DNA of 49,068 nucleotides from an uncultured Candidatus Peribacteria bacterium (GTDB lineage: Bacteria > Patescibacteriota > Gracilibacteria > BD1-5 > UBA2023), in the NCBI GenBank assembly GCA_964518815.1, contig CAZFLS010000001.1:1-49068 (forward strand), written 5' to 3'. The first letter of the stretch is position 1, and every line of letters starts with the position of its first letter. The notes beneath the pieces were generated by a model that worked only from the letters and a program-made list of their open reading frames with translations, did not search any database and was not told the DNA's origin. This document shows positions 1-31,955 of the stretch, piece after piece. Position numbers and translations under genes: made by a program.

Positions 1-188
1 CTTATAAATGATTTCATATTCTTTATGATTACGATAACGAATGTAATTTTATTACACCTGAATTACATAAAAAAATTAATAATTTTTTAATTAAAAAATT
101 TAACTGAGATGAGAAAGCAAAAGACCTATCAAGAGTTTATAGAACTTTAGGATATATAGATTTTAAGAATAAGAAAGATTTTAAAATA

Positions 189-1562
189 ATGAGTTTTTAT
201 TTTAAAGGCAGATTTGGTTTTGATGATAAAAATAATAAGCTTATTTCAAAAAAAGTAATTACAGAAAAATTTAAACTTAAGTATGAAGAAAGGAATATTA
301 ATGATTTAAAAATCAAATATAATAAATTTCAAGAAAAGCTAGAAAAAGAGAAAATAAGAAAAATGGAATATTATGAGAGGATTAAAATAAATATTAATAA
401 AATAGATCAAATCGATAGTTTAGAATTTATTGATAAATTAAAAAAATATTTTAATAATTCTGTATTGCAAAATAAAGACCCTGCTTATACAAAAGAAAAT
501 ATTACGCTAATAAAAAATAGATTGAAAATTAATTTTCAAGAAAAAAATAAAAATAATAAATTTTATGAAGATGATTGAAAAAATACTACTTCGGGTCTAT
601 TTTTATCTAAATCAGAAGACAATACTGGTTATCAATTAAAAGATTTTTCAAAACATGAAAGAAGTAGAAATTACAATTTTTTAAAAAACTGGGTTTTAAA
701 AGATATAAAAGTATCATGAAAAGAAATGGGAAATATTTTATATTATACAACCTGAATTGCATTAAATGCAAAGAATGAAAAAAATTCACCAATTGATAAA
801 AAAGTATTTTTAGATGCTTTATATTCAAAATTAATTTTGCCCGAAAATAACGATCAAAAAGAAAATGAAAATTGATTATCTATTATTACAAAACTTAACT
901 ATCCAGCCTGATTTTTAAAAATTTTCATTGGATTTATGCATTATATTCACGAAAATATTTCGAGTAATAATTTAAAAGTAAATAATGATTCAAATTGAAT
1001 CGAATATATAATTGAAGTTAATAAACTCTTAAAAAATGTTTTTAATATTTACTCAAAGTCAAGCCTAGAACATAATAAAAAACTGTTTTATAAAATTATT
1101 GAAATAATCTCTAAGGTAAAGATAGAGATAAAACATAAAAACAATTATTCAAAGGAAACAATATTAATTTTTACTAAGCTTGAAAAGGCAAAACAATGAA
1201 GAAATGATATTTTAATAATAAAATGATCAAACAATAATATTAAATTTTCTAATAATTCAGCTTTTTTTAATAAAGAAATACTTACTTTTCAAAAAGGATT
1301 TGCAGATACGAAAATTACAGACTTATTTCTACTAATAAATTGATTACTAAATTCAATCTCTCATGATTTATCGTACTCTTTAGATGTAATATACAAATAT
1401 TTAAATTACAATCATGCAAGCAAATCGGTATTGCAAACATTAAAAAAACATTTAAATAAATGAAAGAAAAAGGCTTTTTTTAAATATTATGAGATTAAAG
1501 ACGGTAAAATTGCATTTTCTAAAAGAGAAAAAAGTATAAGTAATAAGACAAAAAATAAATAA
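189..1562 (+). CDS. hypothetical protein (457 aa with TGA=Gly)
   Basis: ORF-track fragment 189..578 continues in the same frame through multiple in-frame TGA codons to TAA at 1560-1562. Lys/Asn-rich, no motif recognised. Confidence 0.55.
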
Positions 1563-1706
1563 TTTAATTAAAATTTTTACTTATCTAATCCTATTATTAC
1601 TAGATAAAAAATTTAAAGCCAAAAAAAACTTGACTTTCATAACAAAAAGAATAATATAGTTATGAATATATATTCACAATTAATTTTATTTCTTAACAAT
1701 ATTACT

Positions 1707-1964
1707 ATGCCATACTTAGATTGAACAGGTCCGGCTGGGCAAGGTCCTAAGACAGGACGAGGTTTTGGTTCTTGTTCTGGAAACCAGCAAGTAAACACTT
1801 TGGGTTATGGAAGATGAATGGGTATGTGAAGATGAAGATGATTAAGATGTTGTGATGTTGGATTTTGAAATGTTCAAGCATCTTTGGAAGATCAAGAAAA
1901 ATTTTTAGAAGGCAGATTAGATGCTGTTCGTAAACTTAAAAAAGAATCTAACTCCAAAAAATAA
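1707..1964 (+). CDS. DUF5320-family protein
   Basis: MPYLDGTGPAGQGPKTGRGFGSCSG...GYGRGMGMGRGRG matches the MPxxDGTGPxGxGPxTGRGxG signature. Several Gly in the GRG repeats are TGA codons. C-terminal coiled coil. An in-frame ATG at 1662 is an alternative start. Confidence 0.8.
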
Positions 1965-2239
1965 TGGTACGACCTAGATTATGTAGAAGAGTTCTTCTAG
2001 ACCCAAAAGTGACATTTTATAAACCTCAAGGTATCCCGCTTAGTACATTGAAAGTAATAGAACTTTCACATGAAGAGTGGGAAGCTTTGAGGTTAAGACA
2101 TATAGAATGATTAGATCAAATAAAATCTGCCAAAAAGATGAATACTTCTCAAAGTACTATGCAAAGGATTTTAGCTTCTGCTCATAAAAAGCTATGAGAA
2201 GCTATCGTAAAAGGTTTAGCAATTAAAATTATTAAATAA
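1964..2239 (+). CDS. DUF134 (UPF0251) predicted DNA-binding protein
   Basis: MVRPRLCRRVLLDPKVTFYKPQGIP...LSHEEWEALRLRHIEGLDQIKSAKKMNTSQSTMQRIL is the typical DUF134 pattern. The start overlaps the upstream stop (TAATG). Confidence 0.8.
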
Positions 2240-2240
2240 T

Positions 2241-2522
2241 ATGGATAAATCAAAAATAAACTATGTAATTGATACTCTTATGTTTATATTCTTTTTTATT
2301 ACCTCAATTACAGGATTAATTATTTTTTTCTTTTTACCTAGTGGTGTAAGACAAGGAAGATTTCAAGAGTTTATGTGAATTACAAAAGAAGTTTGGAATT
2401 TTATTCATGTTTGGTCATGAATTTTGATAATAATTTTTGTTATATTGCATTTGATTTTGCACTATAATTGGATTATTTGTATGACAAAAAATTTATTTTC
2501 CAAAAAGAATTGTAAAAATTAA
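2241..2522 (+). CDS. DUF4405-like small membrane protein
   Basis: 93 aa with two hydrophobic helices and HVWSGILIIIFVILHLILH. It sits in the usual position next to DUF134/DUF5320 genes. Confidence 0.6.
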
Positions 2523-2548
2523 ATATTTATAATTTATTACCAAAATTT

Positions 2549-3613
2549 ATGAAAAAATTTATTCTTTCAATCATTTTATTGAATACCTTTTTGTTTGTAT
2601 TCTCATTTAATGCATTTGCTCAAAGTGGTGATATGATTTTGTTTTATTGAAATGGATGTCCTCATTGTGCAAAAGTTGAAGATTATATTAAAAGCAATAA
2701 TTTAAATTTAAATATAGAACAAAAGGAAGTTTATCAAAACAAAAATAATGCAAATGAATTTAATAAGATTTGTGATAAGGAAAATATTTCTTTGATGGAC
2801 AGATGAGTACCTTTTTTGTATTCCAAATGACAATGTTTTATCTGAGATAAACAGATTATCTCATATTTAAGCGAATTTAAAGGTAATATTTCCAAAGAAG
2901 AATGAAAAAAAGAAGAGCAAGTAAAAAAAGGTTTTTCTGATTCTTTAACTATACCATTTTTAATTTGAGCCGCTTTGGTAGACGCTATAAATCCATGTGA
3001 ATTTGCTGTATTACTAATATTAATGACTACGATTCTTGCTTCATGAAACAGAAAAAGAGCTTTATTATCAGGATTAGCATATTCTTTATCTATTTTTATT
3101 TCGTATTTTTTAATGGGGCTTGGTATTTATTCTATAATTTTAAGTGTAGAAACTTCCACTATCTTTATTAAAATTATATGATGTATAGCAATTCTTCTTT
3201 GAATTTTTAACCTCAAAGATTATTTTTGGTATGGTAAATTTTTCGTAATGGAAGTTCCTCTTAGTTGGAGACCAAAATTAAAATCACTTGTAAGATCAAT
3301 TACATGACCAATTAGCGCCTTTTTTATATGAATTTTGGTTAGTTTATTTTTGCTACCTTGTACAAGCTGACCTTATATTGTAATCTTAGGTATGCTTTGA
3401 CATAATGAAACTTACTTAAAAGCAGTTTTATTATTACTACTCTATAATGTTATATTTATACTGCCAATGATTGGTATTACAATTTGAACTTATTTTTGAA
3501 TGAATGTAGAAAAGGCAGAAGAAAAAAGAACTAAAAGTTTACAATTACTTCATTTAATTGCTTGAATAATTATGTTGATAATGTGAATTGTATTGGTAAC
3601 AGGAATTTTTTAA
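2549..3613 (+). CDS. thioredoxin-fold domain fused to CcdA/DsbD-type thiol-disulfide transmembrane transporter
   Basis: Signal-like N-terminus, then a GNGCPHC redox motif. This is followed by multiple TM helices carrying DAINPCEF and LLPCTSGPY (DsbD_2/CcdA conserved Cys). Many TGA=Gly codons. Confidence 0.75.
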
Positions 3614-3659
3614 TTATTGTAGTTAAATTATTAAAAAACATCTTAAAAAAAGATTTGTA

Positions 3660-3767
3660 TATATACCCAAGAAAACCCAGTTGTCCGACGCTCGCCAGAG
3701 GCGAACTAGCACCAACAAATGGTTTTGAAAATGAAAAATCGGAAAACCAATTTTGTTTGGGTATATA
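3660..3767. ncRNA. candidate structured RNA of unknown class
   Basis: 11-bp closing helix TATATACCCAA (3660-3670) / TTGGGTATATA (3757-3767). It encloses a locally GC-rich hairpin TCGCC-AGA-GGCGA and a second hairpin CAAATGGTTTT...AAAACCAATTTG. Lies in non-coding DNA and is followed by a terminator-like hairpin. Confidence 0.35.
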
Positions 3768-3772
3768 AACTC

Positions 3773-3800
3773 AAAACAAGCAATCATATCTGCTTGTTTT
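3773..3800. terminator. hairpin terminator (bidirectional geometry)
   Basis: AAAACAAGCA-ATCATATC-TGCTTGTTTT, a 10-bp stem with A/T runs on both sides. Confidence 0.5.
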
Positions 3801-4082
3801 AAAAATATCTTTTACTTGATTTTTTTAGGCAAAAGAGTAGAGCTCATAAGCATTATTTTATATTACAAATTTAATAAACAATCACGAATTGGTTAATAAG
3901 AAATTAAGAAGAACGTAAAATTAAAGTATGTCTATATAATAATTTTTTCATTTTTCTAAATAACTATAAAATAGTAAAGGTTTCTTTGAAAAAAGATCCC
4001 AACCTTTTGTGACGCTTTTTTGGTTTAAAAAAGGTGTAGCTTCCAGGATTTTAATCCTAGGCAGCCATTTTTATTAGTTTTT

Positions 4083-4247
4083 ATGACTAATAGAGAAAAT
4101 AGAGCTTTCAGTAAGAAGGTTCGTAAATCTCAATTCCTTCTTAATGGGGATATATTTCGAGAGGAATATATAAAGTGTTTCTTAGATGTTCTTTTTGAGA
4201 AAAACTTGATTGAGATTAATTCGACTTTCTATACTGATGAGTTCTAG
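4083..4247 (+). CDS. small hypothetical protein (54 aa)
   Basis: ATG..TAG ORF, MTNRENRAFSKKVRKSQFLLNGDIFREEYIKCFLDVLFEKNLIEINSTFYTDEF. It is directly followed by a 10-bp hairpin. Confidence 0.35.
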   Translation: MTNRENRAFSKKVRKSQFLLNGDIFREEYIKCFLDVLFEKNLIEINSTFYTDEF

Positions 4248-4251
4248 TAAA

Positions 4252-4279
4252 AAGAAGAGGCTTTTAATGGCCTCTTCTT
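4252..4279 (+). terminator. hairpin after small ORF
   Basis: AAGAAGAGGC-TTTTAATG-GCCTCTTCTT, perfect 10-bp stem with a weak T tail. Confidence 0.45.
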
Positions 4280-4392
4280 TGAAATTTTAAATAAAAACTT
4301 TCTTTTTAGAAAAAATAAATAAACTTATTGGGTACTTTTGGCATTAATTACTGATAAATCTAGAAAGTATACTATTTATTTAACTATTTTTT

Positions 4393-6096
4393 ATGAAATC
4401 AAATAATACAATTATCAATACTGATAATAGCCAAGTTTATGCTGCTATATATTGTAGAGTAAGTACAGAAGAACAAGCAAACAATAGAATTAGTCTTCAT
4501 GATCAAGAGCAAAGATGTTTAGATAGGGCTAAACAACTTGGATATATTGTTAAACCAAAACATATTTTTCGAGATGAATGAATTAGTGGAACTTCGATCG
4601 ACAAAAGACCAGGTATGATAGAACTTCTTTCATCTATTACATGATCAAAATTTCAGAAATTCAATGATATCAATATTAGTGCGATTATTTCATTGAGTAT
4701 GGATCGTATTTCCCGTAACCATTACGATTATTTATTTTTTAAAAAGCTTTTAGAAAAACATTCGGTAAAATTTATTAGTATTGAACAAGAATACATTGGT
4801 CAAAATCAAGATGATATGGTTGCTGATCTTCTTGAAAATATTATTTCTATTTTTAATGAACTGCTAGTAAAAATTACTGCTAAAAAAACTTCTTTTGCTA
4901 TGGAAAGAAAAGTTTTGGATTGATGGCTTCCTTGACAAGCACCATTTGGCTATATGAATGTAAATATTGGATCAGATGAAAAACCAGAAAGAGTTATACG
5001 TGTTAATGAAGAAGAATCAAAAATAGTCCAAGAAATGTATAATAAATACGCCCAATGAAATTGTTCTTATTCTGATCTTACAAAATATCTCAAACAAAAG
5101 GGTTTTACAAATAAAAATGGGAAGCTTTTCGCCAAAAGTTCAGTAAACAAAATTTTAAATAATATTTTTTATACAGGAAAAATTCTTTTCAAAAATAAAG
5201 TCTATGATTGAAAACATGCGCCTATAATTAGCCAAGAATTGTTTGATAAAGTTTCTCGATTAAGTAAAGAAAGAGATCAAAATTCATTTCATCAGAAGAA
5301 ATATTATCATTATCTTTTAAAGGGTTTAATATATTGCCAAAAAACAGGCAATCCTTACTCTGCTACAAGGACTTTTAAAAAAGCTAAGGATTATACAAAG
5401 GAATATTACTTTCCAATAAAAACAAAGCAACCTGAGTGAAACCTTGATTCAAAAGAATATCAATATCTTATAAAAGGTCAATATATCGAAGTGGAAGTAT
5501 TAGAAAAAATGGTTGAAGAAGAAATAAAAAAAATAAAAATAAATTCAGATTACCTAGACCAACTAACAGAAAAAGCTCGTTCTATGTTTGAGGATCAAAA
5601 TAAGGTGAATCGTCTTGAAGAATCAAATTTAAGAAAACAGATTCGGGATATACAGTTACAAATGGAAAAACTTGAAGAAAAATATATTGAAACTAAAACT
5701 ATTTCCGATGATGTTTATACTAGATTGCATTGAAAATATGAAGATAATAAAAAGAAGCTTGAAACACAGATGAATAATAAGAGAAAAATCATAGAAATTC
5801 AAAAAACTGACTTCGATAAACTTCTTAAAATTATGAAAGATCCATATACTCTTTATAAAAATACAGATACAACAGAAGGAAAAACTAAACTATTAAAACT
5901 TATTTTTGAAAAGATTTTCGTTTACAACAAAAAAATCCAGAAGGTTCAGTACACTAGTAGTATACGTGATCTTCTAGATAATCAAGCGGTTTTGTTTCGC
6001 AAAACATGGCTCCCAATAGTTGAGGAAGTTAGAAATGTTTTTAAAGAGTTAAATTGATTTGTTTACATACCAAATTTAAATCATTCCAATTTTTAA
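4393..6096 (+). CDS. large serine recombinase (integrase), 567 aa
   Basis: YCRVSTEEQ catalytic Ser motif. FRDE-G-ISGTS and GWLPGQAPFGY with Gly as TGA. VYDGKHAPIISQELFDKV recombinase-domain motif and a C-terminal coiled coil. Five ORF-track fragments share one frame, joined by TGA. Confidence 0.9.
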
Positions 6097-6112
6097 TTCA
6101 CCTATGTATTTT

Positions 6113-7108
6113 CTATAATTTAGAAATTTTTTGAAAAATAATCTTATATAAAGATCTAACACAAAATCAAACTTGCTTAATATTGTTTTTAATATTATTT
6201 AAAGACTCAAATTCATTTCTAGTAACAATATAGATACTTTGGGTTTTTATTTTGGATAAATTTGAATACCATTTTTTTACTCTTTTTAGATATTCTTTTG
6301 AATAATAAGGTCTTTCTTCTGGATATAATTTTTCAAGAAGTTTTTGATCTTCAAATATCTCAACTTCATCAACAATTGTAACTTTGTTATTTAAATTATT
6401 AGTTATTATTTTATCACAACCTTCAAAATATTTTGTTTTAATTCAATTATTTTGTAAATAAGAAATAAGAATGTTTTTAACAAACCAGGTTTTTCAAGAA
6501 TCAGTTTTTCATGCTAGTAGAATATTATGACCTTTTAACAAATTTATATAAATTTCATTAGCTAAGATTAATAAATTATAATCATTCTTTAATAAACTAA
6601 ACACTAATTCATTTTTAAATTCTTTATTTCTCAAAATACTTTTTCTTAATAAACCCTCATAAATAAAATTATTATTTTTAATTAATTTTATTGAATCTAT
6701 ATTTTCCTCTTCAATATTTGCATAAATCCTATTAAGTTTTAGATTTTTAAAAGAGTATTTTAAAATTAATTGGATCGCTTCTGTTGCTAATCATTTTTTC
6801 CAATATTCTTCTCATAACCAAAATAACAATCCTGCTTTTTTATTATCTATATCAAAATCTATTAAATCAATTTCTCCTATTATTTTATTAGAATCTTTTA
6901 AAATTATTCAAAAACAAAATTCTTCCTTATTATTAAATTTTTTAATCTTAGATTTAATATATTTTTTAGTCTCATTTAATGATAATCATCATCAGAACCA
7001 ATAATTTATTTTTTTATTTTTAAATAAATTAAAGATGTCTTGAGTATCTTTATCTTTCAACTGTCTTAATATTATTCTATTACTGATTAATTCAATACTT
7101 TTATCCAT
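6113..7108 (-). CDS. GNAT N-acetyltransferase (RimJ/RimL-like) fused to a small P-loop NTPase
   Basis: The N-terminal half resembles GNAT (..IGEIDLIDFD..AGLLFWLGEEYWKKGLATEAIQLIL..RIYANI..N..S). The C-terminal half has Walker A LLAGKTDSGKTW (both Gly are TGA) and Walker B VTIVDEVE. 996 nt in one frame. Confidence 0.65.
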
Positions 7109-7178
7109 AAATAATTAACTTATAATTTAAAGTAGTTAAATATTAATCAAAAATTCTTAAAAAACAAAAAAATAATTA

Positions 7179-7211
7179 AATAGGGCGAGTTATTAATTAA
7201 CCCACCCTATT
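7179..7211 (-). terminator. rho-independent terminator after precursor gene
   Basis: On the minus strand, AATAGGGTGGG..loop..CTCGCCCTATT is followed by a long T-rich tail (TAATTATTTTTTTGTTTTTT). Confidence 0.6.
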
Positions 7212-7259
7212 ATATTTCGTAAATACTGAAAAAATATTCTCGCAGAATTTATAAGTCCG

Positions 7260-7382
7260 CTATTTTCTACAAGAAATATTTCTCAACATTTTACAGTTTG
7301 CACGGCCCTTCGATTGTTTTGACCCGCACGCCTGGATGTTTACACCTTTTGTAACTTTTACTTTTTTGATTTGTTTTTTCAT
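7260..7382 (-). CDS. candidate RiPP precursor peptide, 40 aa, polycationic, three Cys
   Basis: AAGGAG Shine-Dalgarno sits 8 nt upstream of the ATG. Sequence MKKQIKKVKVTKGVNIQACGSKQSKGRANCKMLRNISCRK, stop TAG, terminator downstream. Starts 72 nt after the radical SAM gene stop. Confidence 0.6.
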   Translation of the reverse strand: MKKQIKKVKVTKGVNIQACGSKQSKGRANCKMLRNISCRK

Positions 7383-7454
7383 TTCATTAAACTCCTTTAA
7401 GATTTATTTTTGAACATTTTTACATCACTTTACCTATTTGTTTTTATTATATAA

Positions 7455-8762
7455 CTATTTTTCACCTCCTTTCATAAAAAACTTAGTTACATCACACTTA
7501 TGAGAAGATGGTATTCTATAATCTCCATTCTCTATCAGTGCGACACCTATACAACTATCACAAAAATCTCTTATTTTGCAATTCATGCATTTCGGTATTT
7601 CTGTAATACTAAACTTATTAAGGAATTTGTATTTATTTTTTAGAATCTCATTAAGAGGTAATTTTCTTATATTTCCCATTACTATCCTTAAGTCAAGACA
7701 AGGATATACATTGCCGTCCGAACCTATAGCTATTTGATCTTTACCAGCAAAACAAACAGTTTTGTCGTTTGCACAATTTCTGTATTTTTTTTGTTCAGTA
7801 AAACCATTGATTTTTTTTAAAAATGGTGCAAATTTTTCTTTCAATTCTTTCGCTGATAGTCTTAATTCTATCCCGTATTCTAAGCCCTTTCTGTTTGGAG
7901 TAATGTATGGAGAATAAGAAACATTAACATCCCCAATCTTTTTGATTTTTTCGTGAATTTGTTCAATTTCATCAATATTATGTTTACCAACCATTACAGA
8001 TAGCGATACCGGAATACCGTTATCAATCATTTTTTTTATGGTGTCTGATAATTTACTAAAACTATAGTTTGTAGAGGTAATACCAGAAAACCCATCTTTG
8101 GTTTCATATATTGAAATTTGTAAATCTAAAAGATTTAGGTGTTTAAGTTTTTTGATTATCGTTTCATTGATAATCGTGCCGTTGGTTTTTATTTCCAAAC
8201 AAAAACCCATTTTATTATATGCAGACAATATTTCAAGAGCATCTTTTCTTAAAAATAACTCCCCTCCTGTGAATAAAACAGATACCACTCCCAAATCTTT
8301 TAATTGACGACCCAGATTTATTATAGTGTCTTTATCTAAACCTTTCTCAGTAAAATTATCCAAATAACAAAACTTACATCTTTGATTACAGTTGTTAGTA
8401 AGCTCTATGGATGCGTTAATAATCTGATCGTTTTGAATTGCATACTCGATTAATTTATCAAAAGCATTACCTCTAACGTCTACATTATCTACTTCTTTTT
8501 TATCAGAAGTGCTTTTGGCTTTTGCTTTCTTAGATATAAATGTTGCTACTATTTTTTTAATTTCTCTGTACATCTTTTTTATCTCTTTATGATCTTTTTT
8601 TTCATAGGCATCCAAATATTTCCTTTCAAGCTTGTAGTTTGGATTACTTAAAAAAATTAAAGCAATTTCTGACAATGAACCCTCAATAAAAAGAGAAGAT
8701 AAATCTTTGGTATCAAAAATAAAAACACCGTCATTATATTTTCTTGTAATAAATCTTTTCAT
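7455..8762 (-). CDS. radical SAM / SPASM-domain peptide maturase with N-terminal PqqD-like (RRE-like) region
   Basis: Intact 435-aa ORF even in the standard code. CNQRCKFC (CxxxCxxC) and GGELFL motifs. C-terminal Cys cluster CFAGKD..DGNVYPC..CMNCKIRDFCDSC..HKC is typical of SPASM. Confidence 0.85.
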   Translation of the reverse strand: MKRFITRKYNDGVFIFDTKDLSSLFIEGSLSEIALIFLSNPNYKLERKYLDAYEKKDHKEIKKMYREIKKIVATFISKKAKAKSTSDKKEVDNVDVRGNAFDKLIEYAIQNDQIINASIELTNNCNQRCKFCYLDNFTEKGLDKDTIINLGRQLKDLGVVSVLFTGGELFLRKDALEILSAYNKMGFCLEIKTNGTIINETIIKKLKHLNLLDLQISIYETKDGFSGITSTNYSFSKLSDTIKKMIDNGIPVSLSVMVGKHNIDEIEQIHEKIKKIGDVNVSYSPYITPNRKGLEYGIELRLSAKELKEKFAPFLKKINGFTEQKKYRNCANDKTVCFAGKDQIAIGSDGNVYPCLDLRIVMGNIRKLPLNEILKNKYKFLNKFSITEIPKCMNCKIRDFCDSCIGVALIENGDYRIPSSHKCDVTKFFMKGGEK

Positions 8763-9053
8763 ATTTTGCCCCCAAATTTTTATTTTATTTTATTTTTGTT
8801 TTTAGAAATTATATGTTAATGAGCATTGTTTGACTAATTCATTATTCCTTAATAACCAATAAATTACTGTATATGTACAATAACTAAAATTTAAAAAAGT
8901 CAATACTTATTTACCTATAATTACTGATTTTTGGAGAATGAATTTGATTTCAACGACTTTTATTTTAAAAGAATAAACATTAGAAATAAATGGTTCATAC
9001 CAATCCAGAATTACCAGACTGAATTAAAAAGAGAATATCAAAGGTTAGAACCA

Positions 9054-9088
9054 ATAAAAAAAGGCATCAGTATGCAAAATACTGACAC
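9054..9088 (-). terminator. rho-independent terminator
   Basis: Minus strand reads GGTGTCAGTAT-TTTGC-ATACTGATGCC followed by T7. Lies downstream of the 9191..9745 gene. Confidence 0.65.
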
Positions 9089-9190
9089 CTTTTCTTCTTT
9101 AATTCCATCTTGGCTCCACCTACCGAATATATTGCGAACTAAATATTACTCACAGATTTTGGAATTAGGAAGGTTAAGGTTTGCTATTAG

Positions 9191-9745
9191 TTAGTCATTA
9201 CCAAAATCAATAACCTCATCTTTAGGAAGTCTTTTCATAATACCGTCTGCTAATTCTTGTATTTCATTTGCTTTTGGATGTTTAGTACTTAATTCTCTTA
9301 CTTTTTGTACCATATTATCAGACATATATTCTTTCAATAACTTATAAAATCTTTGTTTTATTTCATTATTTTCAAAAGCGCTATCTAGACTTTTTTCTAA
9401 TATCATCTTTTTTTGTTCCTCATTACAATTTCAAAGTAAGTTAGGATTAACTAAAATAAATATTCTACCTATATATTCTTTTAAAAATTCAAAATCATCA
9501 AATCTAGGATAAAAAGTACTAATATTATTCATATAAAAATTTAAACGATTGAGAAAAGTATCATAAGTAAAATTAATAATTTCTAACTTACTTTCTTCTT
9601 TTTCATCTTTCATTTCTAAAGAAACAAAATTATCTCTATTATTAGTTTCAATTGTTGAAATAAAAAAATTTATATTATTAACAATATCTTTTTCTTGTTC
9701 AACTGATTCTGATATAGAAGTATGATTTGCTTGTGGCTTATCCAT
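9191..9745 (-). CDS. hypothetical protein (184 aa)
   Basis: ORF-track fragments 9431..9745 and 9191..9406 are in one frame, joined through TGA at 9431-9433. Confidence 0.55.
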
Positions 9746-11710: not shown

Positions 11711-12040
11711 ATGGCAAAAAATAAAAAGATGTTTTTAAAATATTTTAATACAATTATTTATAATAAAATATCTTTAATATATACTTTATTAATGCGTTTA
11801 TTAGAAAATTACTTACTCAATATACCCGTTTTATACTGATTAATCTTAGTTATATTTATTATTGTATTGTTATTTGCATTAGTTTCTTGAATTAAACTGT
11901 TAGTGAAAAATAAAATAAACTTTAATAATTTAAATAAAAAATATTACCTTATTATATTATATTGTTGTTTTTTACTTTTTTTATTATATTTTAGATATGA
12001 TCTTCTAAGATTTATTTTATATTTCTATAACTTCTCTTAA
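11711..12040 (+). CDS. possible small membrane protein (109 aa)
   Basis: ATG..TAA with two in-frame TGA codons and two hydrophobic stretches. Overlaps the 3' end of the convergent nuclease gene by 24 nt. Could be spurious. Confidence 0.25.
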
Positions 12041-12775
12041 GTTCTCAAAATATGCACAATAATCACATTCTTTACTTGAATCTGGTATAATATCACTATT
12101 TAAACATTTATGTAACTCTATAATAGTATTTTCTATCCAATTATCATTTCAAGTATAAGAAATAAGATTAATATCAAATTCTAACCTATAATCAAACGCG
12201 TCTTTGTCTGTATTTCAATTACAATATACAAAATATCCTGTATCTGAAACCTCAAGTCAGTTTTTTCTTAAAAGCCATTGATATATTTCCATTTGTCTCT
12301 TATATCAATCTTGCCAGTCTTGATTTAATTCTGTTATTTCTTCATTCTTTGAAGTGGCTTTATAATCTACTACAATATATTCTCAATTACTACTCTGCCA
12401 TAAGTCATCTATAGCTCAAAATATAAGTAAATTGGTTTTTGAATGTAAATACTGAATTCAAGTAAAATTATGTCTCCATTGTTCTAAAAGTTCGTGAGAT
12501 ACAGGTTTTGCATCAATATTATACTTTTCTATTAGAGGATGTTTTGCTCAATTGTTTCTGTATATATCAAATTCTTTCTTTAAAAGATGATCTACTGCAC
12601 TATTTAAACTAAAAGGAAATCCTGGAGGTCTTCAAATTCAAAGTCTTCTATCTAAATAAAAACATCTTGGACAATCTATAAATAAATCAATTTTAGATCT
12701 ACTTAATTTAAAAGGTTGACTATCTTTTGGGTTGTATATGTTTTTTGTGCGTTTTGGGTTATAATATTCTGACAT
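12017..12775 (-). CDS. PD-(D/E)XK nuclease, Cas4/RecB-like with Cys cluster
   Basis: N-terminal CPRCFY and C-terminal CDYC (four-Cys pattern as in Cas4). AIDDL...VVDYKAT (D..D/ExK) and RQMEIYQWL (QxxxY). Confidence 0.7.
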
Positions 12776-12787: not shown

Positions 12788-15397
12788 TTATTTTATAAAT
12801 TTATCTTCAAAAGCTTTTTCAAATTCATTCTCTTTTTTTTCACTATAAAAAGGTAATCAAATAAGCTTATAATTTCAAAAGTTCATTTCTAATATTTTTG
12901 CTTTATCTTCTATTTCAAGTAAAAATTCTTGTTTCCAGCCTTCTATAGAATTTTCAAATCCTAAATTACTATCCTTAAATTGATCTCATTTCGGTTCTAT
13001 AAATATTTGATAAGTAAAAGGTTGTTTTGTAATTTTATCTTGCATAAACAATATAAAATCAGGCTCAAACCTATCTCAATTTATAAATGAATAAATAGCA
13101 ACAGTTCTTTCATTTCGGATTAAATAAATATTAGTATATTTTTTTTCTAATTTTTGTATTATATCTTCAAACATTTTTATAAAACTCTTTTCTTCACTAG
13201 TTCAATTGATTTTTTCAAAAACAAACCATTTTTTATTTACTCAAAATCATTCTACTCATAAATCCACTTTTATAGCTTTTTCAAAAGGATATTTAGAAAT
13301 ATTCTTTGATATAAAAGTTTTTGTTCATTCATACTCAACTTTTTTATCTTTAATTTCAATTTCTAAGATATTTAAAAGAGATGAAACAGCTTTTAACTTA
13401 TTTTCTATTGTTAAATTCTCTAAAACTTCCTTAGAGCTGTAAAAATCTATACTTATATTTCATAGATAATTATCCGATTTAATAAACTCATCAATACTTT
13501 GAAGTTTTCAAAGATAACTTTTAAGGTTGGAAAATTTATAGAAATCATTTCTTTGTATAGCTTTTCTTACAATTCTATTATCAATTTCTTTTATTAAAAT
13601 ACTTTTTGGTTCTTTTTCTATTTTAAAATTATCTTTCTTATCATCAAAAGCTTCTATATCATAGCTCTTTCAAGTAAATAAATCTTTAAATTCATATCTT
13701 TTAGTTTGGAGTCAGATTTTTTCAAAACTATCAATATTTGAATAATCTTTAAATTTTTTCTCATTTGTAAAAATAACTCAATTTTTATAAAATTCACTAT
13801 CTTTAAAGGATCTTTTAAATTCAAAAATAAAATCCTTTTTTTCTTTTTCATCCATAATTCAAATATCTCTTAAAGCCTGTCTTATTTCTGCAATATATAA
13901 ACTATCAAAACTTGTATGATAATAAAAAGTTTCAAGTATTTTTAAATCATCGAGCTTATTATCAAACTTTCTTTTGAATTTATTTTCTCATAAAGTTTTT
14001 TCTGTTACAAAAGGAAAATATCTTGCTCATCTTCATATGAGTTGAGCTTCGCTAATTGTTTGGGGTCAAACTTTGATTTTTCAAGTTTTTTTATCTACTA
14101 CATTACTTCTAGACTCATATAATCTTACAATATCAAAAAGATTTAAAACATCCCATCATTCATTTAGTTTTTGTACAGCAAAAACAGCTCTTATACGATT
14201 GTTTTTATCTTCAAGAGTATTAAGTAGTAATTGATTTTTTCAAGCCTCACTATCATCATTTGCACTTATACAATTTTCATGAACAAAATCATCTTTTAAC
14301 TCATTCACAAGTAAATCAAGACTTATTTTACTTTCTTCAAAAAATTCAAAAGCTTTTAATATAATTTCTGAATTAGTTTTGTTTTTTATATTTAAAATCT
14401 GATCTGGCTTTAATTCTTTTATAAGCTTATCAAAATTTATTAAATTATTTTCACTTTCTGCAACTGTTTTTTGAGCCTTAAATAAAATAACTGGTTTACA
14501 TAATATTTTATTTTTTTCTGCTACTTTTAATCTATATTGACTTAAAACAAGAGCCTGTAATATTCTGTCATTTTGTTCCATATCAGCCTTTAAAATATCT
14601 ACTTCTTTACTATATCAATCAAGTCTAAATTGTTTTAAATCATATCTGTAAATAATTTTATCAAGATATTTTTCGGATATATTTTCATTTCATAAATCTA
14701 TCGTTGCTGTAAATTCCAAAAGCATATTTTCTATATGAGAATTAAGAATTTTCATTATTGTATATTCCCATGAAGTCTTTTCTTCTTGTTCAGTTTTATT
14801 TAAATTTCAATTTTTTGTAAGTGTATTTATATGATGGGCTTCATCTGAAATTATAACTATTTTTTTGTCTTTGAATTCTTCATAAGATACCCTTCATTCT
14901 CATATTACATTCATATCAGTATGAAGTCCGTGAATAGTGGTAAATTTAATATTAATATTATCATCTGTATTACCTGAAAAATTAGAAACTTCTTTTATTT
15001 GTATTTGTTTTCCATCAAACACAATCTTATCATTGAATAAATACTTTGAAGAATTACTATTTAAAAAATTATCTTTCGTTTTTTCTATAATATTTGTCGA
15101 ATTTACAAAAAACAAGAAGTTTCTATATCATTTTTCATATAAGCTCAAAATAAGTCCAGCCATTACATAAGTTTTACCGCTTCAAGTTGCCATGTTATAG
15201 AGCAAATGAATAGGTATTTTCTTGTTTTTATAGCTGTCTATATAATATGAGAATCTAACAAAAGCTTCTTTTTGATACTCTCTCATCTGAAATTTTTCAT
15301 TCAGATTTTTTGTAATATTCAAAGGAATGTTCTTATCGAGAACATCCATTTCGGAAAGGGTATCAAATTTTTGGTAGAGAAATTGTTGTGTCGTCAT
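12788..15397 (-). pseudogene. res: type III restriction enzyme Res subunit (SF2 helicase + PD-ExK endonuclease), reading frame interrupted
   Basis: MAT-G-SGKT Walker A, VIISDEAHH (DEAH), LNEGWDVLNLFDIVRL and QLIGRGARY (motif VI). C-terminal RFEPDFILF..IFIEPKG endonuclease motif. In-frame TAA TAA at 13955-13960. Confidence 0.75.
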
Positions 15398-16087: not shown

Positions 16088-18010
16088 TTATTTATAAAAC
16101 TCTCCATTAATCTTTTTATCTTCTTTACTTACTCAATTATTTACATCTTCAATCTCGCTATAATTTACATAAAGCATATTCTTATCAAGAAGCTTGAACA
16201 AAAACTTTTTCTGATTTTCTATACTTAATTTTTCAAATTCATCTGTATTTTCATCAATATTTTTAATATTTACTTTGTAATTTATATATCATGTTTTCTT
16301 TATCTCTTCATATATTTTTATTATTTCTTTACTTGTTTTAGCTTCTTGAATTTTATCAATGAAATTTTGATTATTTTTCATAAGTTCCATATAAACAAAA
16401 TCTCATCATCAATTATTTTTAATTACCTGTTGTACTCTAGGAATAGTTACATTTCTAATATAATCCATTTGCTCAATTAATATAAATTGTCTATTTCATC
16501 AATCTTCTTTATTTAATTCCAAAACTGCATGAGCTGTTGTCCCACTACCTCAAAAAAAGTCTAATATTTTTGCTTCCTTATTTTTTGAAACTATTGCATA
16601 TATACAATCATATACATTCCATAAAGATTTTGGGAAACTAAATTTACATCAAGGAACCAAACTTTTTATAAGTTTTGTTCCATATTCATTTGCATCGTAT
16701 TTTTTATCTATCCAAACTGTTTTATATTGTCAAAAATCTTTTCAAATATCAATATCATAAACATCGTTATTAACTTTCACGTGTAATAAATCTTGTACTT
16801 CTTCTATACTTTGACGAGCATATCTCCATTTTCTTTCCACTCATTCCTTATCAATTGGATAAATTTCAACAAAATCTCAATCATGTACATTAACCTGAGG
16901 ATGAGTTCAATCGGAACAAACATTTCAAAATCAGATAACCTGTAAAGTTTTTTTGTCTGCTATAATTGAATAAAAACAATTTTTAGCATCTGTTCTTTTT
17001 GACTCTCAGCCATTATCTCTTAATCATCTATTTTTTATGTCTTCTTCAGCTATTTTTCTATTTAATACTGTTTTTTTATCTTTAGGAATAATAAAAAATG
17101 CAAATTCATGGGTATAAGAAAAGTTTGTACCTTGTACTCATCTTGGATTATGAACTATTGTAATGCAATGACTCTCATATTCTGGGAATATTTCATCAAG
17201 TAATACTCATAAATATACTTGTTCAGCTTTATCAATTGCAACAATCAATACTCATTCTTTTTTAAGTAAATTCTTTGCAATATCTAACCTATTTTTCATA
17301 AAAGTAAGCCAGGAAGAATGTTTAAATCTATTATTATATTCAAAAGTATCTCAATTTCCTCAAGTATTATAAGGGGGGTCAATATAAATAAGGTCTAATT
17401 TTCATGCAAAACTGCTCTTCAAACTATGAAGAGCTAAAAGATTATTTCATTTGATAATAAGATTATCTTTTATAGTTCAATTTTCATCTCTTTTAAATCA
17501 ATCAAGCTTGTGTTCTCAAGTCTTATCTATTCTTTTGAAATTCGTAAAAACCTTTTCATCAAGAAGTCTATCTATATCATCATTTCATAAAATTTCATTA
17601 TAAAAAACTTCATCTCTTTTAACATCTTCTTTATCTTGTCCTCAAGCCAAAATACAGTCTTTATATGGAAAACTTAAAACAACATCATTGTTGTCATTTA
17701 GGAGGTCTCATTTTGAATTTGTGAGTCCGATTTTATTTTTGAAACTTGTATAGCTATCGGGTAAAAATTCTTTATTGTTTATAAACTGAATGAATTTTTT
17801 ACTATCAAAAACTTCAAAATTACTTCAATAATTTAATGATTTAAAAAATGCTTTTTTTGTGTCTTTATTATTAAAAAGTAACCATATAAGATCCCCGTCT
17901 AATTTATCTGCTTCTTCTCTTATTACATTCTTCAATAAATCTCATTCTTGAGATATAAATCTTTTGTCTTGTTTTAATACTTCATATAAAATTTGAAATA
18001 AATTTTTCAT
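16088..18010 (-). CDS. mod: type III R-M Mod subunit, N6-adenine DNA methyltransferase (beta class)
   Basis: DLIYIDPPYNTGGNGDTFEYNNRFKHSSWLTFM (DPPY motif IV) lies upstream of ILDFFGGSGTTAHAV (motif I). 1923 nt in one frame. Confidence 0.85.
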
Positions 18011-18017
18011 ATAAAAA

Positions 18018-18212
18018 GGCAATCAATAAATAAGATTGCCGAGTTTATTTGTGGTTTATTGTAGCAAAAACAAAGCAGGCAGTATATGTGCCAGAGTTTT
18101 TGCTACAAAACCTTTTCCGCATGCATTGAATTGCAGACAGTTGGACTTACCATATACTGCCTGCAGGTTTTTCAATACATACTTAAAAATACGAACTCGG
18201 TTTTGTAGCAAG
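18018..18212. other. GC-rich structured element (RNA leader/ncRNA or DNA cruciform or origin-like site)
   Basis: Perfect complementary pairs: 18060-18071/18096-18107 (12 bp), 18075-18088/18151-18164 (14 bp), 18101-18112/18199-18210 (12 bp), 18039-18045/18194-18200 (7 bp), 18018-18024/18034-18040 (7 bp). Confidence 0.5.
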
Positions 18213-19708: not shown

Positions 19709-19885
19709 CTTTCGATGGAAACTAATGTTAATACATCTATAAACATTCAAAAACAACAAGAACTTTTAAACTTGGTATGATTTTTTGAGTTGCTTATAGA
19801 AATCGATAGAAGTAAAAAAAAGATAAATGATGAATTTTAATAAAGAACAAACTTGTTCAAATTTTATTTCTTAATTTTTATTCTT

Positions 19886-20431
19886 ATGATAGACACAGTT
19901 TTAATCACATTACCTATACATAGGATTCGAATAAGGAATCCTGAATATTTTGAGCCAAATGCAAAATGACTTTGGGAAGCTCCTTTTATACCATTTTCAA
20001 ATCATATTGCAAAATGTGTTCAAAATCCCACTAAAGAAGATTTAAGAATGAAGATATATAAACCGAGGCTTACTTTTATAAAGTCTGTAAATAACGGTAA
20101 TATGAATATTAATCTTAGAATTGAGTTGTCTCTTCCGAAGCTTCTTTTTTGAAATAATTTTGATGAACTTAAAGATGATGATTTTTCTAAAATTCTTGGT
20201 AAACTGAAAAACAAGCTTGAAAATATGGGAATTATAACGGAAGAAAAATATATTGCCGAAGGACAAGTTTCAACAATTCATTACTCAAAAAATATTGTAT
20301 TTACTGATTTTACAAGCGTTTCAAGTATTATAAATACGGTATCAAAAATAAATGCTTCAAAAATTTTTGATTTAGGACAAACTGATTATTCTAATTGATG
20401 AGAATTACATCTAATGAATATGACAAAATAA
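19886..20431 (+). pseudogene. truncated phage/plasmid replication-initiator-like gene (CRI/gene II-like N-terminus)
   Basis: MIDTVLITLP... and SLPKLLFGNNFDEL resemble, from memory, the N-terminal region of Phage_CRI-type Rep proteins. The ORF ends after 181 codons, where it runs out of frame into the recombinase remnant. Confidence 0.3.
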
Positions 20432-20736
20432 TAAAAGAATTAAAAAGAAAAGAACAAGATATTTTACAACGATTAATGGATCATTCTAAAGCAGATGAAC
20501 AATTTTTAATAACAAGTTCTTATATATTGGAACTAGCAAATCGTGCTTATGAACTATTTGAAAGTTCGCAAGCTGAGCAAAAACGAAGATTACTAAATTT
20601 TGTATTTGCGAACTTTTCTGCACAAGGCAGTAAACTACAATACAAAATAAAAGAGCCGTTCAACGAACTGCTCTTTGCTTCAAAATCTTCAAATTGGCTC
20701 CCGCAGCTGGATTCGAACCAGCGACCAAATGGTTAA
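20395..20736 (+). pseudogene. C-terminal remnant (about 100 aa) of a large serine recombinase, reading into tRNA-Asn
   Basis: ITSNEYDKIIKELKRKEQ..LLNFVFANFS..SNWLP aligns by eye with the last 100 aa of the intact recombinase (..LLKLIFEKIF..RKTWLP). The final codons LPQLDSNQRPNG are the antisense of the tRNA gene. Confidence 0.7.
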
Positions 20737-20769
20737 CAGCCACCTACTCTACCGCTGAGCTATGCGGGA
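20695..20769 (-). tRNA. tRNA-Asn (anticodon GTT), CCA encoded
   Basis: TCCCGCA-TA-GCTC-AGCGGTA-GAGT-A-GGTGG-CTGTTAA-CCATT-TGGTC-GCTGG-TTCGAAT-CCAGC-TGCGGGA-G-CCA. 7-bp acceptor stem, TTCGAAT T-loop, 75 nt. Confidence 0.9.
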
Positions 20770-23820: not shown

Positions 23821-24927
23821 TTATTCAAACATTTTTTCAAAAATACTCTTATTAATATTAATTCCTTTTTCTTCTGCAATCTTTTGATATAATTCTTTTT
23901 CTTTTTTTGAAATACGAGTTGGAGTTTTTAAAATAAGTTTTAAAAATAAATCTCATTTATAATCTGTATTTACATTTTTCACTCAATCTCATTTAAATTT
24001 CAAAATTTCTCAATATTGCGTACCAGGTTTTATTTCAACAATTCTATCTCATAAAACAGGTATTTTGATTTTCTTTTTTGTTCATAAAATTGCTTCTACT
24101 GGTTCTATATCAAAAGAATAATGTAAATCATCTCAATCTCTTTTTAATCATTCTAAATCAGAAGGAACTTTAAATACAATATACAAATCACCGGACTTAC
24201 CTTTTATCGATTCATTTCATTCTCATTTTAATTTAAGTGTCATTCCATCATCTACTCAAGCTGGAATTTCTACTTCTTTTTCTATTTTTTCATTAATTCT
24301 TTTTTCTCAGAAACAAGCACTACATTTTTGTTCTATTATAACTCATTCTCAATCACAAGCAGAACAATACTCTGTCTTTTCTACTACTCAAAAAAATGAT
24401 TGTACTCTTTTTTTTATATGTCCAGAACCATGACAAGTTGTACAAGTTTTCATTCAAGTTCATGGTTTATTTCAGGCTCATCAACATGTTTTACATACAA
24501 TTTTTCTTTCAAATTTAATAGTTTTTTTAATACCAAAAATTGCATCAGCAAAATTTAAATTTATTCTAAATTCCAAATTTTCTCAAGATTCATTTTTTCT
24601 CCTTTTTCAAGAGCCATATTCCGATCATCAAAAAAATGTTTCAAAAATTTCTGACAAATCAAAATCCATATTAAAACCCTGGTTGAATCCTTGATTAAAA
24701 CCTCACATTCAATCCATTGAACCATATCTATCATAATGAGCTCTTTTTTGACTATCAGATAAAATAGAATATGCTTCATTTACCTTTTTAAAATCTGCTT
24801 CTTTACTTTTATCTCAGCCATGTCTGTCTGGATGATGTTCCATAGCTTTTGCTCTATATGCTCTTTTTATTTCATCAGAAGTTGCATTTTTTGATATTCA
24901 CAATATGTCGTAATAATTTTCTGGCAT
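23821..24927 (-). CDS. dnaJ: molecular chaperone DnaJ
   Basis: J domain [35 protein letters not shown], a G/F region and four CxxCxGxG zinc-finger repeats ([32 protein letters not shown]). About 28 Gly are encoded by TGA. Confidence 0.92.
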
Positions 24928-31058: not shown

Positions 31059-31088
31059 AAATTTCTTTATAATTTAATAAGTTTATTA

Positions 31089-31769
31089 TTATTGTGTAGT
31101 AGTCCATGACCTTATTCTTTCTAATTTTCTTACAAGTCATAATTTTTCTGCTACATCTGTGGTAACATCTCTATCAATAAATAATGTCTTTGCTCATTTT
31201 GATCAATGTAATTCTAGACCTTGAAAATTACTGGTTAAATCAGCTCACTGTAAGACTTCAATATATCAATCATTATCTTTTGCTTTTATTAATGCATGTG
31301 CTACTGCTAACTTACTTCATTTATTATTTTTATCTATTCTAAGAAAGTGTTTTTTTCAAGAAATATTTACAAGATAAAAATCAAACTCTTTATTATAGGC
31401 CAAAAATCTTTCTGGTATGATATTTCTAATTTCAGACTCTGTAATAGTAAAATCCATAAATCAAGTACGACCTGTTACTCCAATTTCTTTTGCGTTTTGT
31501 TTAGCAAAATATTTAGAATCAAGTTCTTTAAATCTCTTAATAATATCTCCAAAATCTTTAATTAATTTTTCTCTTTTTTTATAATCATCTCAATCAAGTG
31601 GTGCTTCTTGCCAAACTATTAACTTGCTTCTTAAAGATTCTAATTTAGTTTTTATTGTGTTATATAATCTCTCATACTCAAGATATGACATATTAGTTTT
31701 ATCTAAAGTTTTTATATTTGAAGCTAGATTTTTTGATTCTTGAGTATATTCATTAAAAAATTTATCCAT
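31089..31769 (-). CDS. hypothetical helical protein (226 aa)
   Basis: ATG at 31769 to TAA at 31089-31091, 681 nt in frame. Confidence 0.45.
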
Positions 31770-31789
31770 GTAATGCTTTTGATTAAAAA

Positions 31790-31942
31790 TTAAATTTTAT
31801 TTTTTATTCATTTTTTTAATTGTTTTCTTGTTACTTGAGAAGAAAATTTGGTCATATTTTTCTCAAAATTCTTACAAATCTCTTGAAAATCCAAAAGTGC
31901 TTTACAATTATCTTCTATTTCTTCATTATAAGTTTTTGTCAT
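31790..31942 (-). CDS. small helical protein (50 aa)
   Basis: MTKTYNEEIEDNCKALLDFQEICKNFEKNMTKFSSQVTRKQLKKGIKNKI. Same frame as ORF-track 31808..32005, read through its TGA. Confidence 0.35.
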
Positions 31943-31955
31943 AAAATAAATTAAA

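Follow-up and report, generated by a model that had tools for sequence, protein, structure and literature searches.

How does a pair of adjacent genes remain free of a codon that their own genome uses for most of its glycines? The question is raised by a 49,068-nucleotide stretch of contig CAZFLS010000001.1 from an uncultured Gracilibacteria bacterium (GenBank assembly GCA_964518815.1; GC content, 23.7%), which we refer to as the window. On its minus strand the window carries a gene for a radical S-adenosylmethionine (rSAM)/SPASM peptide maturase and, directly downstream, a gene for a putative 40-residue precursor peptide; together these are called the module below. TGA is a sense codon here, and reading it as glycine (genetic code 25, as opposed to the standard bacterial code 11) yields long open reading frames (ORFs) with DnaJ, SSB, and type III mod and res domains. 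The module, however, contains no TGA codon at all.

Across the 33 ORFs other than those for the maturase and the peptide, glycine is written 524 times as TGA and 235 times as GGN, a TGA share of 0.69. The maturase gene has 26 glycine codons, all of them GGN (14 GGT, 5 GGA, 4 GGG, and 3 GGC; binomial P = 5.8e-14), and the three in the peptide gene are GGN as well, giving 0/29 TGA for the pair versus 524/759 elsewhere in the window (Fisher P = 5.8e-15). An earlier examination of the letters alone, referred to here as the sequence-only reading, had estimated about 27 and 3 glycine codons for the two genes, none of them TGA, and our counts bear this out. Its description of the surrounding genes was accurate too: dnaJ (23821-24927), for which it gave about 28 TGA codons or roughly two thirds of all glycines, has 28 TGA and 14 GGN, and the neighbors that it described as using TGA freely do so (10/15 glycine codons in the gene for a GNAT-ATPase fusion, 9 TGA and 13 GGN in the recombinase gene, TGA shares of 0.77-0.83 in mod and res, and 8/13 in ssb). 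Lack of TGA is not a common property of native genes, as that reading had asked; just two other ORFs of the window are TGA free, these encode 113 and 135 residues with 2 glycines each, and the maturase gene is the only one of more than 150 codons in this state.

The two module genes give the same ORFs under codes 11 and 25, end in TAG, and are less AT rich than their surroundings (GC, 0.287 for the module versus 0.237 for the window), all of which had been proposed before. TAG terminates 8 of 35 window genes, and two consecutive TAG stops are weakly unusual. With glycine excluded, GC content at third codon positions (GC3) is 0.218 in the module versus 0.127 in the window (z = +3.4), and a synonymous-codon likelihood of z = -3.1 makes the module the codon-usage outlier of the window. 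Chance is ruled out as the cause of the missing TGA (P = 6e-14). Avoidance of TGA as a DNA motif is ruled out as well, and the depletion is in frame only: TGA densities per kb in frames 1, 2, and 3 are 0, 4.6, and 16.1 in the module versus 13.8, 3.6, and 17.4 in the background, so that frames 2 and 3 of the module are at background density.

TGA-free pairs beside TGA-using ATPases

Relatives of the module often include a third gene, encoding a P-loop ATPase of about 145 residues. In many loci of the standard-code type (L001-L007, L014, L020, L024, L025, and L028-L030) it immediately follows the gene for the peptide, and in three other loci (L023, L033, and L034) it lies upstream of the maturase gene; in the window it is fused behind a GNAT domain. 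The window ATPase matches those of other loci at 36-50% identity in tblastn searches. Both of its Walker-A glycines (lowercase in AgKTDSgKT) are encoded by TGA, and the contrast between 4/6 TGA in the ATPase domain and 0/29 in the module is significant (P = 3e-4), more so for the whole fusion gene at 6113-7108 (10 TGA and 5 GGN; P = 1.2e-6), which has a native-like GC3 of 0.12. Identity with standard-code copies is 42-50% for the ATPase domain and 44-49% for the maturase, a similar divergence, and neighbor-joining trees of the two proteins, of which we used the groupings without bootstrap supports, give the same groupings. Thus, recent arrival of the cassette as a unit is an insufficient explanation, because the whole cassette should then be TGA free, whereas the ATPase that travelled with the pair has TGA codons and native GC3.

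The same pattern was found in a second code-25 lineage. A glycine-free, code-agnostic motif scan of metagenomes, combined with protein searches, yielded three carriers from different samples, L023 (GC, 0.276), L033 (0.253), and L034 (0.26), which we assign to code 25 because TGA encodes the Walker-A glycines of their ATPases, as it does at these positions in the window. Internal TGA codons are absent from the maturase and peptide genes of all three (0/19, 0/19, and 0/17, respectively; 0/55 in total), while TGA makes up 8/36, 9/16, and 11/48 of the glycine codons in other genes on the same contigs (Fisher P = 0.025, 1.6e-4, and 0.025). When the four code-25 contigs are pooled, the maturase and peptide genes have 0/84 TGA versus 15/21 in the ATPase genes (P = 1e-13). 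At three conserved glycine columns of the ATPase, TGA accounts for 10 of 11 code-25 codons, whereas every code-11 sequence compared has GGN.

In this trio, the ATPase, maturase, and peptide genes form one continuous homologous block with 60-95% nucleotide identity and no break at the ATPase/maturase junction. Synonymous divergence (dS) is 0.90-1.15 for the maturase gene, with a ratio of nonsynonymous to synonymous divergence (dN/dS) of about 0.2, and 0.78-0.85 for the ATPase gene. At 13 conserved maturase glycine positions, 5-6/13 codons are identical between pairs, compared with 4.9 expected by chance; the third positions of maturase glycine codons are randomized among GGN and saturated. GGA, which is one transversion from TGA, makes up 19/39 of the conserved glycine codons, and TGA makes up 0/39. 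Simple recency is therefore not sufficient here either, because the trio has kept its maturase and peptide genes TGA free over a dS of about 1 beside a codiverging ATPase gene that uses TGA. The maturase genes are also native in composition: non-glycine GC3 is 0.12-0.16, at or below that of the neighboring genes, and the share of C-ending codons (NNC, 0.10-0.125) shows no excess, which speaks against incomplete amelioration as well as translational selection in these three copies. All three sampled members of their sub-clade lie in code-25 contigs, with none in the better-sampled standard-code candidate phyla radiation (CPR) bacteria.

TGA does occur in the maturase and peptide genes of L023 and L033, but it is confined to sites that would be harmless if read as stop under code 11. 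The maturase gene of L023 ends in TGA-TAA and that of L034 in TTA-TAA, while in L033 the ancestral stop position is occupied by TGA, with TAA 18 codons further on. From its position, the L033 TGA can be recognized as the relic of a standard-code stop. Read-through of this codon under code 25 adds 17 residues to the maturase and overlaps the precursor start (L033:2321-2402).

The surroundings of the trio are mosaic, because a gene with a C-terminal module ...GFKWASKKKMWYYGEMKGRNPKQKSMD.IKAKYG... (L023:230-619 and L034:2759-3289, with a faint DnaJ match in L034) has about 88-90% DNA identity between L023 and L034 and is thus far more alike than the adjoining cassette genes at 60-80%. Other TGA-poor genes around these two cassettes encode a pentapeptide-repeat protein (0/9) and a helix-turn-helix (HTH) regulator (0/9). 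Two further candidates were not accepted as code-25 carriers: L037 has an AT-rich, TGA-free maturase gene on a contig too short for a code call, and L038 is code 11.

An artifact, by which mis-assembly or binning fused a standard-code module to Gracilibacteria DNA, has next to no chance of being the cause. Contigs of three other assemblies do end near or inside the 5' part of the maturase gene, two from NCBI at 8518 (inside the gene) and one from Logan at 8976 (in the upstream spacer), with all three also ending at 589-854; coverage, strain variation, or repeats may account for these ends. However, these same assemblies match the window over 589-8976 at 99.99-100% identity and carry the maturase, peptide, GNAT-ATPase, and recombinase genes on one contig, and the module is thus physically joined to left-side genes with 10 (GNAT-ATPase) and 9 (recombinase) in-frame TGAs. 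Because three independent and identical assemblies make this connection to TGA-using genes on the left, we conclude that the module is not chimeric. In addition, the break at 8518 falls within the maturase gene and not at a gene edge, and the same layout beside TGA-using ATPases was found again in three unrelated samples. A search for insertion scars or repeats flanking the module gave AT-rich chance matches only.

The encoded cassette and its relatives

The maturase resembles SkfB, CteB, AlbA, StsB, PapB, and SuiB (the streptide enzyme) in its combination of an N-terminal domain like the recognition element (RRE) of ribosomally synthesized and posttranslationally modified peptides (RiPPs), a CX3CX2C radical SAM core, and a seven-cysteine SPASM domain (Table 1). 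In an AlphaFold2 (AF2) model with a predicted local distance difference test score (pLDDT) of 90, strands at residues 4-9, 12-17, and 22-27 are followed by helices at 33-39, 47-50, and 55-77; such an N-terminal beta3-alpha3 domain is typical of an RRE, and we regard it as a predicted one. The top full-length Foldseek matches of the model are the RRE-containing SuiB, SkfB, and CteB, and the best PDB match of the family profile is SkfB (E = 6.5e-26). Among 41 family members, the three cysteines of the core motif (C125, C129, and C132) and six of the SPASM cysteines (C337, C392, C395, C401, C404, and C423) are invariant, with C355 present in at least 90%. The best NCBIfam match, the StsB sactipeptide maturase, scores 98.7 bits against a cutoff of 625, and all 64 matches fall far below their cutoffs; by this profile comparison, the enzyme belongs to no curated NCBIfam maturase family (StsB, SkfB, AlbA, PapB, PqqE, and others). 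For the ATPase likewise, no curated family was found. Membership in a defense system was considered and rejected, since PADLOC gave just a generic radical SAM core likeness to pVip and a weak mad8 match for the ATPase.

The precursor peptide, MKKQIKKVKVTKGVNIQACGSKQSKGRANCKMLRNISCRK, has an isoelectric point of 10.9, 3 cysteines, 13 lysines plus arginines, and no acidic residues, and its comparison with Pfam and NCBIfam gave no family match. A homologous ORF of 28-44 residues lies directly downstream of the maturase gene in nearly all relatives' loci. The leader of these peptides is conserved as K-x-[FY]-x-K-T-[KR]-[IV] and their core as C-x2-K-x-S-K...C(K...CR), in which C19, K22, and S24 are invariant and K25 is nearly so; the Peribacteria precursor is a shorter form with two cysteines. 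Sactipeptide and ranthipeptide systems also have a short cysteine-containing precursor gene adjoining the enzyme. Unlike the precursors of those classes, however, the members of this family are very basic, have a C-x2-K-x-S-K core with 2-3 cysteines, and are unrelated in sequence, and unlike the known maturases, the enzyme family is essentially confined to Patescibacteria and often paired with the 145-residue ATPase. Our literature search found no mention of sactipeptides or ranthipeptides in CPR bacteria. If the closest enzymes are a guide, which is our sole basis here, the RRE would bind the basic leader of the peptide, and the enzyme's 5'-deoxyadenosyl radical would cross-link or otherwise modify the C-x2-K-x-S-K...C core. 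By analogy, the product would most plausibly carry cysteine-derived thioether bridges, as in sactipeptides and ranthipeptides.

Sequence signals suggest that the maturase and peptide genes form a self-contained two-gene operon. A strong terminator-like hairpin 3' of the peptide gene (7179-7211) would separate the pair from the GNAT-ATPase gene, and another, at the end of the upstream gene (9191-9745), marks the upstream limit of the regulatory region; two such sites were found versus 0.5 expected in shuffled sequences. Next to the window's copy, no gene is annotated as encoding a transporter or protease. Since L031, L036, and the Peribacteria loci have the pair but no ATPase, the pair can by itself form a minimal unit. 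The GNAT fusion was seen in the window alone, with no GNAT match in any other locus. The RRE-rSAM-SPASM enzyme and its Cys/Lys-rich precursor, often accompanied by a small P-loop ATPase, make up an uncatalogued RiPP-type cassette that appears undescribed.

The cassette was found in about 30 standard-code loci, mostly from Patescibacteria, with one from a Bacteroidota-like genome. The sequence-only reading had asked whether the nearest relatives lie in Firmicutes/Bacteroidota or in CPR bacteria, and the answer is mostly the latter, with the best non-self match of the maturase among 5.8 billion proteins at 54% identity. Named relatives belong to the Patescibacteria group, Paceibacterota/Parcubacteria, Zambryskibacteria, Saccharibacteria, and Peregrinibacteria/Peribacteria, all of which use the standard code, and about half of the standard-code relatives have TGA as the stop codon of the maturase gene. 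According to the literature, Peregrinibacteria and Gracilibacteria belong to one clade. Vertical descent from an ancestor shared with Peregrinibacteria was rejected, as the Peribacteria copies form a separate clade, have about 37% identity, and carry the short two-cysteine precursor; the window maturase falls outside this clade, among Parcubacteria- and Saccharibacteria-type sequences. Because the named relatives are all standard code and the window copy lies outside the Peribacteria clade, sequence comparison gives good support to the view that the cassette has its native home in standard-code Patescibacteria and reached the TGA = Gly lineage by horizontal transfer. CGSKQSK is common to the precursors of the window and of the trio, a hint that they are related; with the limited depth of resolution of our trees, the two lineages may go back to one acquisition or to two.

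In the Bacteroidota-like relative (L031:1-12500; ENA ERZ22146367; precursor, MKKNEKKFIKTKIFTGTSVTKCTSKHSASGVNCKMAKNITCRF), a standard-code genome, the pair lies on a 368-kb contig next to conjugative-transposon genes. The neighbors match DUF4099, Toprim_Crpt, DUF3945, and DUF1896, which we take to be characteristic of conjugative transposons in Bacteroidota; an IS3-type transposase, an Eco57I-like helicase-methylase, and then a resistance-nodulation-division (RND) efflux operon are also present. To judge from this locus, mobile DNA evidently carries the core of the cassette from one phylum to another. Mobility genes near other copies include the serine recombinase of the window and an IS3 fragment with an HTH regulator gene in L023.

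Why the pair may have stayed free of TGA

The sequence-only reading had offered two explanations, namely recent acquisition from a standard-code donor and selection for expression in a standard-code cell. A standard-code origin is upheld by our analysis, but recency is not, given that the nearest relative is only 54% identical, the ATPase is TGA rich, and the trio shows the same pattern. Selection for standard-code readability fits the replicated pattern better than recency does, although carriage on a phage, plasmid, or virus was not seen. The explanation that we favor, with about an even chance of being correct, takes something from each: a standard-code origin, followed by selection that keeps the maturase and peptide genes readable under both codes. 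The TGA-free state of the pair would then be the ancestral, standard-code one, and sustained purifying selection would act against in-frame TGA in both genes. The most economical idea is that the pair constitutes a minimal functional unit and that it, or mobile DNA carrying it, may be periodically expressed in or moved to standard-code cells.

There is a precedent among phages. TGA-free, code-11-compatible phages predicted to infect Gracilibacteria and Absconditabacteria have been described, and their retention has been attributed to advantage and not to recency (Liu et al. 2023, mBio, PMC10746230). The module resembles these phages in being DNA of a code-25 host without in-frame TGA, with stops that are TAA, TAG, or TGA with a backup (TGA-TAA in L023). 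It differs from them in being a two-gene operon among the TGA-using genes of a cellular contig, with no adjacent phage genes, and not a whole phage genome; prophages of Gracilibacteria and Absconditabacteria hosts have been found to be TGA rich (PMC10746230). What is new here is a chromosomal operon that is TGA free beside a TGA-using partner in replicate lineages, whereas TGA-free phages in code-25 hosts were known before.

Several points weigh against selection for dual readability. The pattern comes from four code-25 contigs in two lineages, with three of the contigs related; L023 and L034 are TGA poor overall (22-23%), and their individual tests are weak (P = 0.025). The module of the window has raised GC3 and atypical codons and its ATPase does not, as a later replacement of the maturase and peptide genes alone would give. 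The mosaic flanks of the trio make decoupled gene histories possible in principle, and among three taxa, congruent topologies would come about by luck one time in three. No family member was found on IMG/VR viral contigs, in phage records, or on plasmids, where the only hits were distant radical SAM matches below 30% identity without a motif match, and no element shared by code-11 and code-25 genomes was found, the closest cross-code pairs having at most about 54% identity. We know of no mechanism that would select a chromosomal gene of a code-25 cell for code-11 readability. Because its ATPase contains TGAs, the three-gene cassette as a whole is not dual code. Finally, TGA-containing code-25 copies could have been fragmented by gene callers and missed, and our code-agnostic scan of DNA extended to a single motif and a single collection; a fragment-length match, L041, proved to be a frameshift in a code-11-like contig and not a copy split by TGA, and the gene calls for L033 did read through TGA.

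The replacement just mentioned is the core of a neutral account, in which the maturase and peptide genes were imported from an AT-rich standard-code Patescibacterium, too recently for TGA to have accumulated, and replaced just that part of an older resident cassette, with the other code-25 copies being separate recent imports and selection playing no role. We regard this account as possible but doubtful. The family is overwhelmingly standard code, the former TGA stops still visible in L023 and L033 indicate a standard-code ancestor, and there are AT-rich standard-code carriers whose genes are similar in composition (L019, with a GC of 0.29 and a GC3 of 0.17; L004, with 0.30 and 0.18; and L036, with a contig GC of 0.29). 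The codon usage of the module, an outlier in the window even without glycine, next to a native-like ATPase is as expected, a serine recombinase lies 1.4 kb away, the left flank (1-7108) has a pooled TGA share of 0.51 versus 0.72 in the core of the window (P = 1.5e-4), and the trio's mosaic flanks would also fit. Horizontal transfer into code-25 lineages has precedent as well, with 126 genes inferred to be so acquired in Vampirococcus (PMC8080830). On the other hand, no donor was found and the nearest relative is only 54% identical; the module has no insertion scars or flanking repeats; and a recombination breakpoint between the peptide and ATPase genes is required in the window. Three more independent replacements would be needed in the trio, each mirroring the phylogeny and divergence of the ATPase, yet the block there is continuous, its sub-clade was sampled solely in code-25 contigs, and its glycine third positions are saturated, half of them GGA and none TGA. 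Ordinary amelioration of acquired genes would similarly match the foreign-like GC3 and codon usage of the window module and the graded TGA share of the left flank, but it would not lead one to expect a cotransferred ATPase that is fully ameliorated or a trio that is ameliorated in composition without any gain of TGA.

A quite different account involves no standard-code cells. If tRNA-Gly(UCA) read UGA more slowly or less accurately than other glycine codons are read, UGA might be shunned at the level of translation in genes whose expression must be high or precise, such as those for a RiPP precursor and its maturase. The strictly in-frame depletion and the strong Shine-Dalgarno sequence before the peptide gene are compatible with this, as is the GC3 excess of the window module, which is strongest in C-ending NNY codons (0.25 versus 0.10; P = 7e-6), as translational selection would be expected to produce in an AT-rich genome. 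Proteomics has also detected low-level UGA mistranslation, but the same study recovered 97 UGA-Gly-specific peptides, so detectable proteins do use the codon (PMC4032931). The trio, moreover, lacks both the NNC enrichment and the GC3 excess and is equally TGA free; SSB (8/13) and DnaJ (28/42) use TGA normally; and TGA encodes the Walker-A glycines in the ATPase of the cassette itself. Tolerance of TGA at the C-terminal end of the maturase in L023 and L033 fits a codon that is harmless if read as stop better than it fits a slow codon. A 2024 metaproteogenomics paper is silent on TGA use in relation to expression level. The sequence-only reading had named expression level as a possible cause of equal TGA avoidance in code-25 homologs. 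Such homologs exist, though the closest relatives are others, and that cause is not supported. Altogether, we consider translation-level avoidance very unlikely.

We consider it unlikely, too, that the code serves as an expression gate, such that the TGA-free maturase and precursor genes work anywhere while the ATPase/GNAT gene, with TGA at essential glycines, works only in code-25 cells. Stop-codon recoding has been proposed as such a gate in phages, where, in a standard-code host, recoded stops set late genes apart (Borges et al., bioRxiv 10.1101/2021.08.26.457843; summarized in PMC10746230). The resemblance is that gene sets on one element differ in a reassigned codon, which could set the expression context of each; the difference is that a TGA-free core is opposed here to a TGA-containing accessory ATPase in a code-25 host. 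The window has no code-switch machinery (suppressor tRNA or release factor), its sole tRNA being tRNA-Asn. If a gate were nonetheless at work, the core would regularly function in standard-code cells, such as hosts or neighbors of an epibiont, implying that genes continue to move both ways across the code boundary. Alternatively, the cassette would harm standard-code recipients, in which the modified peptide is made without the accessory function. By analogy, the GNAT domain fused to the ATPase could then give self-protection; acetyltransferases of its RimJ/RimL type include the domain of MccE that provides self-immunity to producers of microcin C.

The use of TGA for glycine is commonly seen as a barrier by which Gracilibacteria and Absconditabacteria are kept in genetic isolation. 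If standard-code origin with subsequent selection for dual readability is correct, selection can keep single cellular genes readable across the code boundary, which has hitherto been proposed for whole phages only. The cassette is of interest in its own right because it would be a widespread RiPP-type system in Patescibacteria, a group for which, to our knowledge, almost no secondary metabolism is known. As its maturase and peptide genes lack TGA, they should be expressible unchanged in Escherichia coli to determine the product.

Other features of the window

The genes to the left of the module (1662-6096) have intermediate TGA shares and raised GC3 (z of about +1.8 to +2.1), and the left flank looks like an older acquired region that has been partly recoded. 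For this reason, the TGA share of each gene might serve as a clock for the residence time of imports, and if so, failure of the clock would flag a dual-code constraint. Positions of these and other features are given in Table 1.

Table 1. Annotated features of the module, its signals, and other parts of the window
Feature	Position	Strand	Glycine codons and stop	Remarks
rSAM/SPASM peptide maturase	7455..8762	minus	0 in-frame TGA, 26 GGN; TAG stop	435 aa
RRE-like domain of maturase	residues ~1-78			AF2 model; low-confidence linker at 80-97
Radical SAM domain of maturase	residues 119-272			Pfam Radical_SAM, E = 1.4e-22; motif C125-x3-C129-x2-C132
SPASM domain of maturase	residues 337-396			Pfam SPASM, E = 4.6e-11; 7 Cys: C337, C355, C392, C395, C401, C404, C423
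Precursor peptide	7260..7382	minus	0 TGA, 3 GGN; TAG stop	40 aa; MKKQIKKVKVTKGVNIQACGSKQSKGRANCKMLRNISCRK
Shine-Dalgarno-like AAAGGAG	7392..7398	minus		9 nt 5' of peptide ATG; read from sequence
Promoter-like TAGTCA-17-TATAAT	8808..8836	minus		5' of maturase start; consensus match alone, such sites being commoner in shuffled sequence
Intrinsic-terminator-like hairpin	7179..7211	minus		14-pair stem, T-rich tail; ~50 nt 3' of peptide stop
Terminator-like hairpin	9056..9096	minus		Ends upstream gene (9191-9745)
P-loop ATPase domain	6113..6583	minus	4 TGA, 2 GGN	Residues 176-331 of 331-aa fusion
GNAT domain	6584..7108	minus		Pfam Acetyltransf_3, RimJ/RimL-like; N-terminal to ATPase; NCBIfam weak matches only
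DUF5320	left flank		6 TGA, 12 GGN	
DUF134	1964-2239		2 TGA, 3 GGN	
Thioredoxin-like/CcdA-like membrane protein	2549-3613		17 TGA, 11 GGN	
Large serine recombinase	4393-6096		9 TGA, 13 GGN	
PD-(D/E)XK/Cas4-like nuclease	12017-12775		TGA share 0.77-0.83 (with res and mod)	Listed with type III restriction-modification
res	12788-15397		as above	Type III restriction-modification
mod	16088-18022		as above	Type III restriction-modification
tRNA-Asn	20695-20769	minus		Only tRNA of the window

An ORF of 113 residues overlaps the tRNA-Asn gene on the opposite strand (within 20395-20769), and its C terminus is the tRNA in reverse. An island bounded by tRNA-Asn was considered and rejected, as no duplicated tRNA fragment is present in the window; the ORFs at 19853-20736 were likewise rejected as a decayed recombinase, as they do not significantly resemble the intact serine recombinase. 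At 28125-45425 lies a series of very large glycine-rich ORFs (977, 226, 577, 234, 745, 1345, and 736 residues). TGA accounts for 65-83% of the glycine codons in each of these except the 234-residue ORF (0.54), and some have hydrophobic glycine-rich stretches by eye. They probably encode large cell-surface proteins, which are often reported in CPR genomes.

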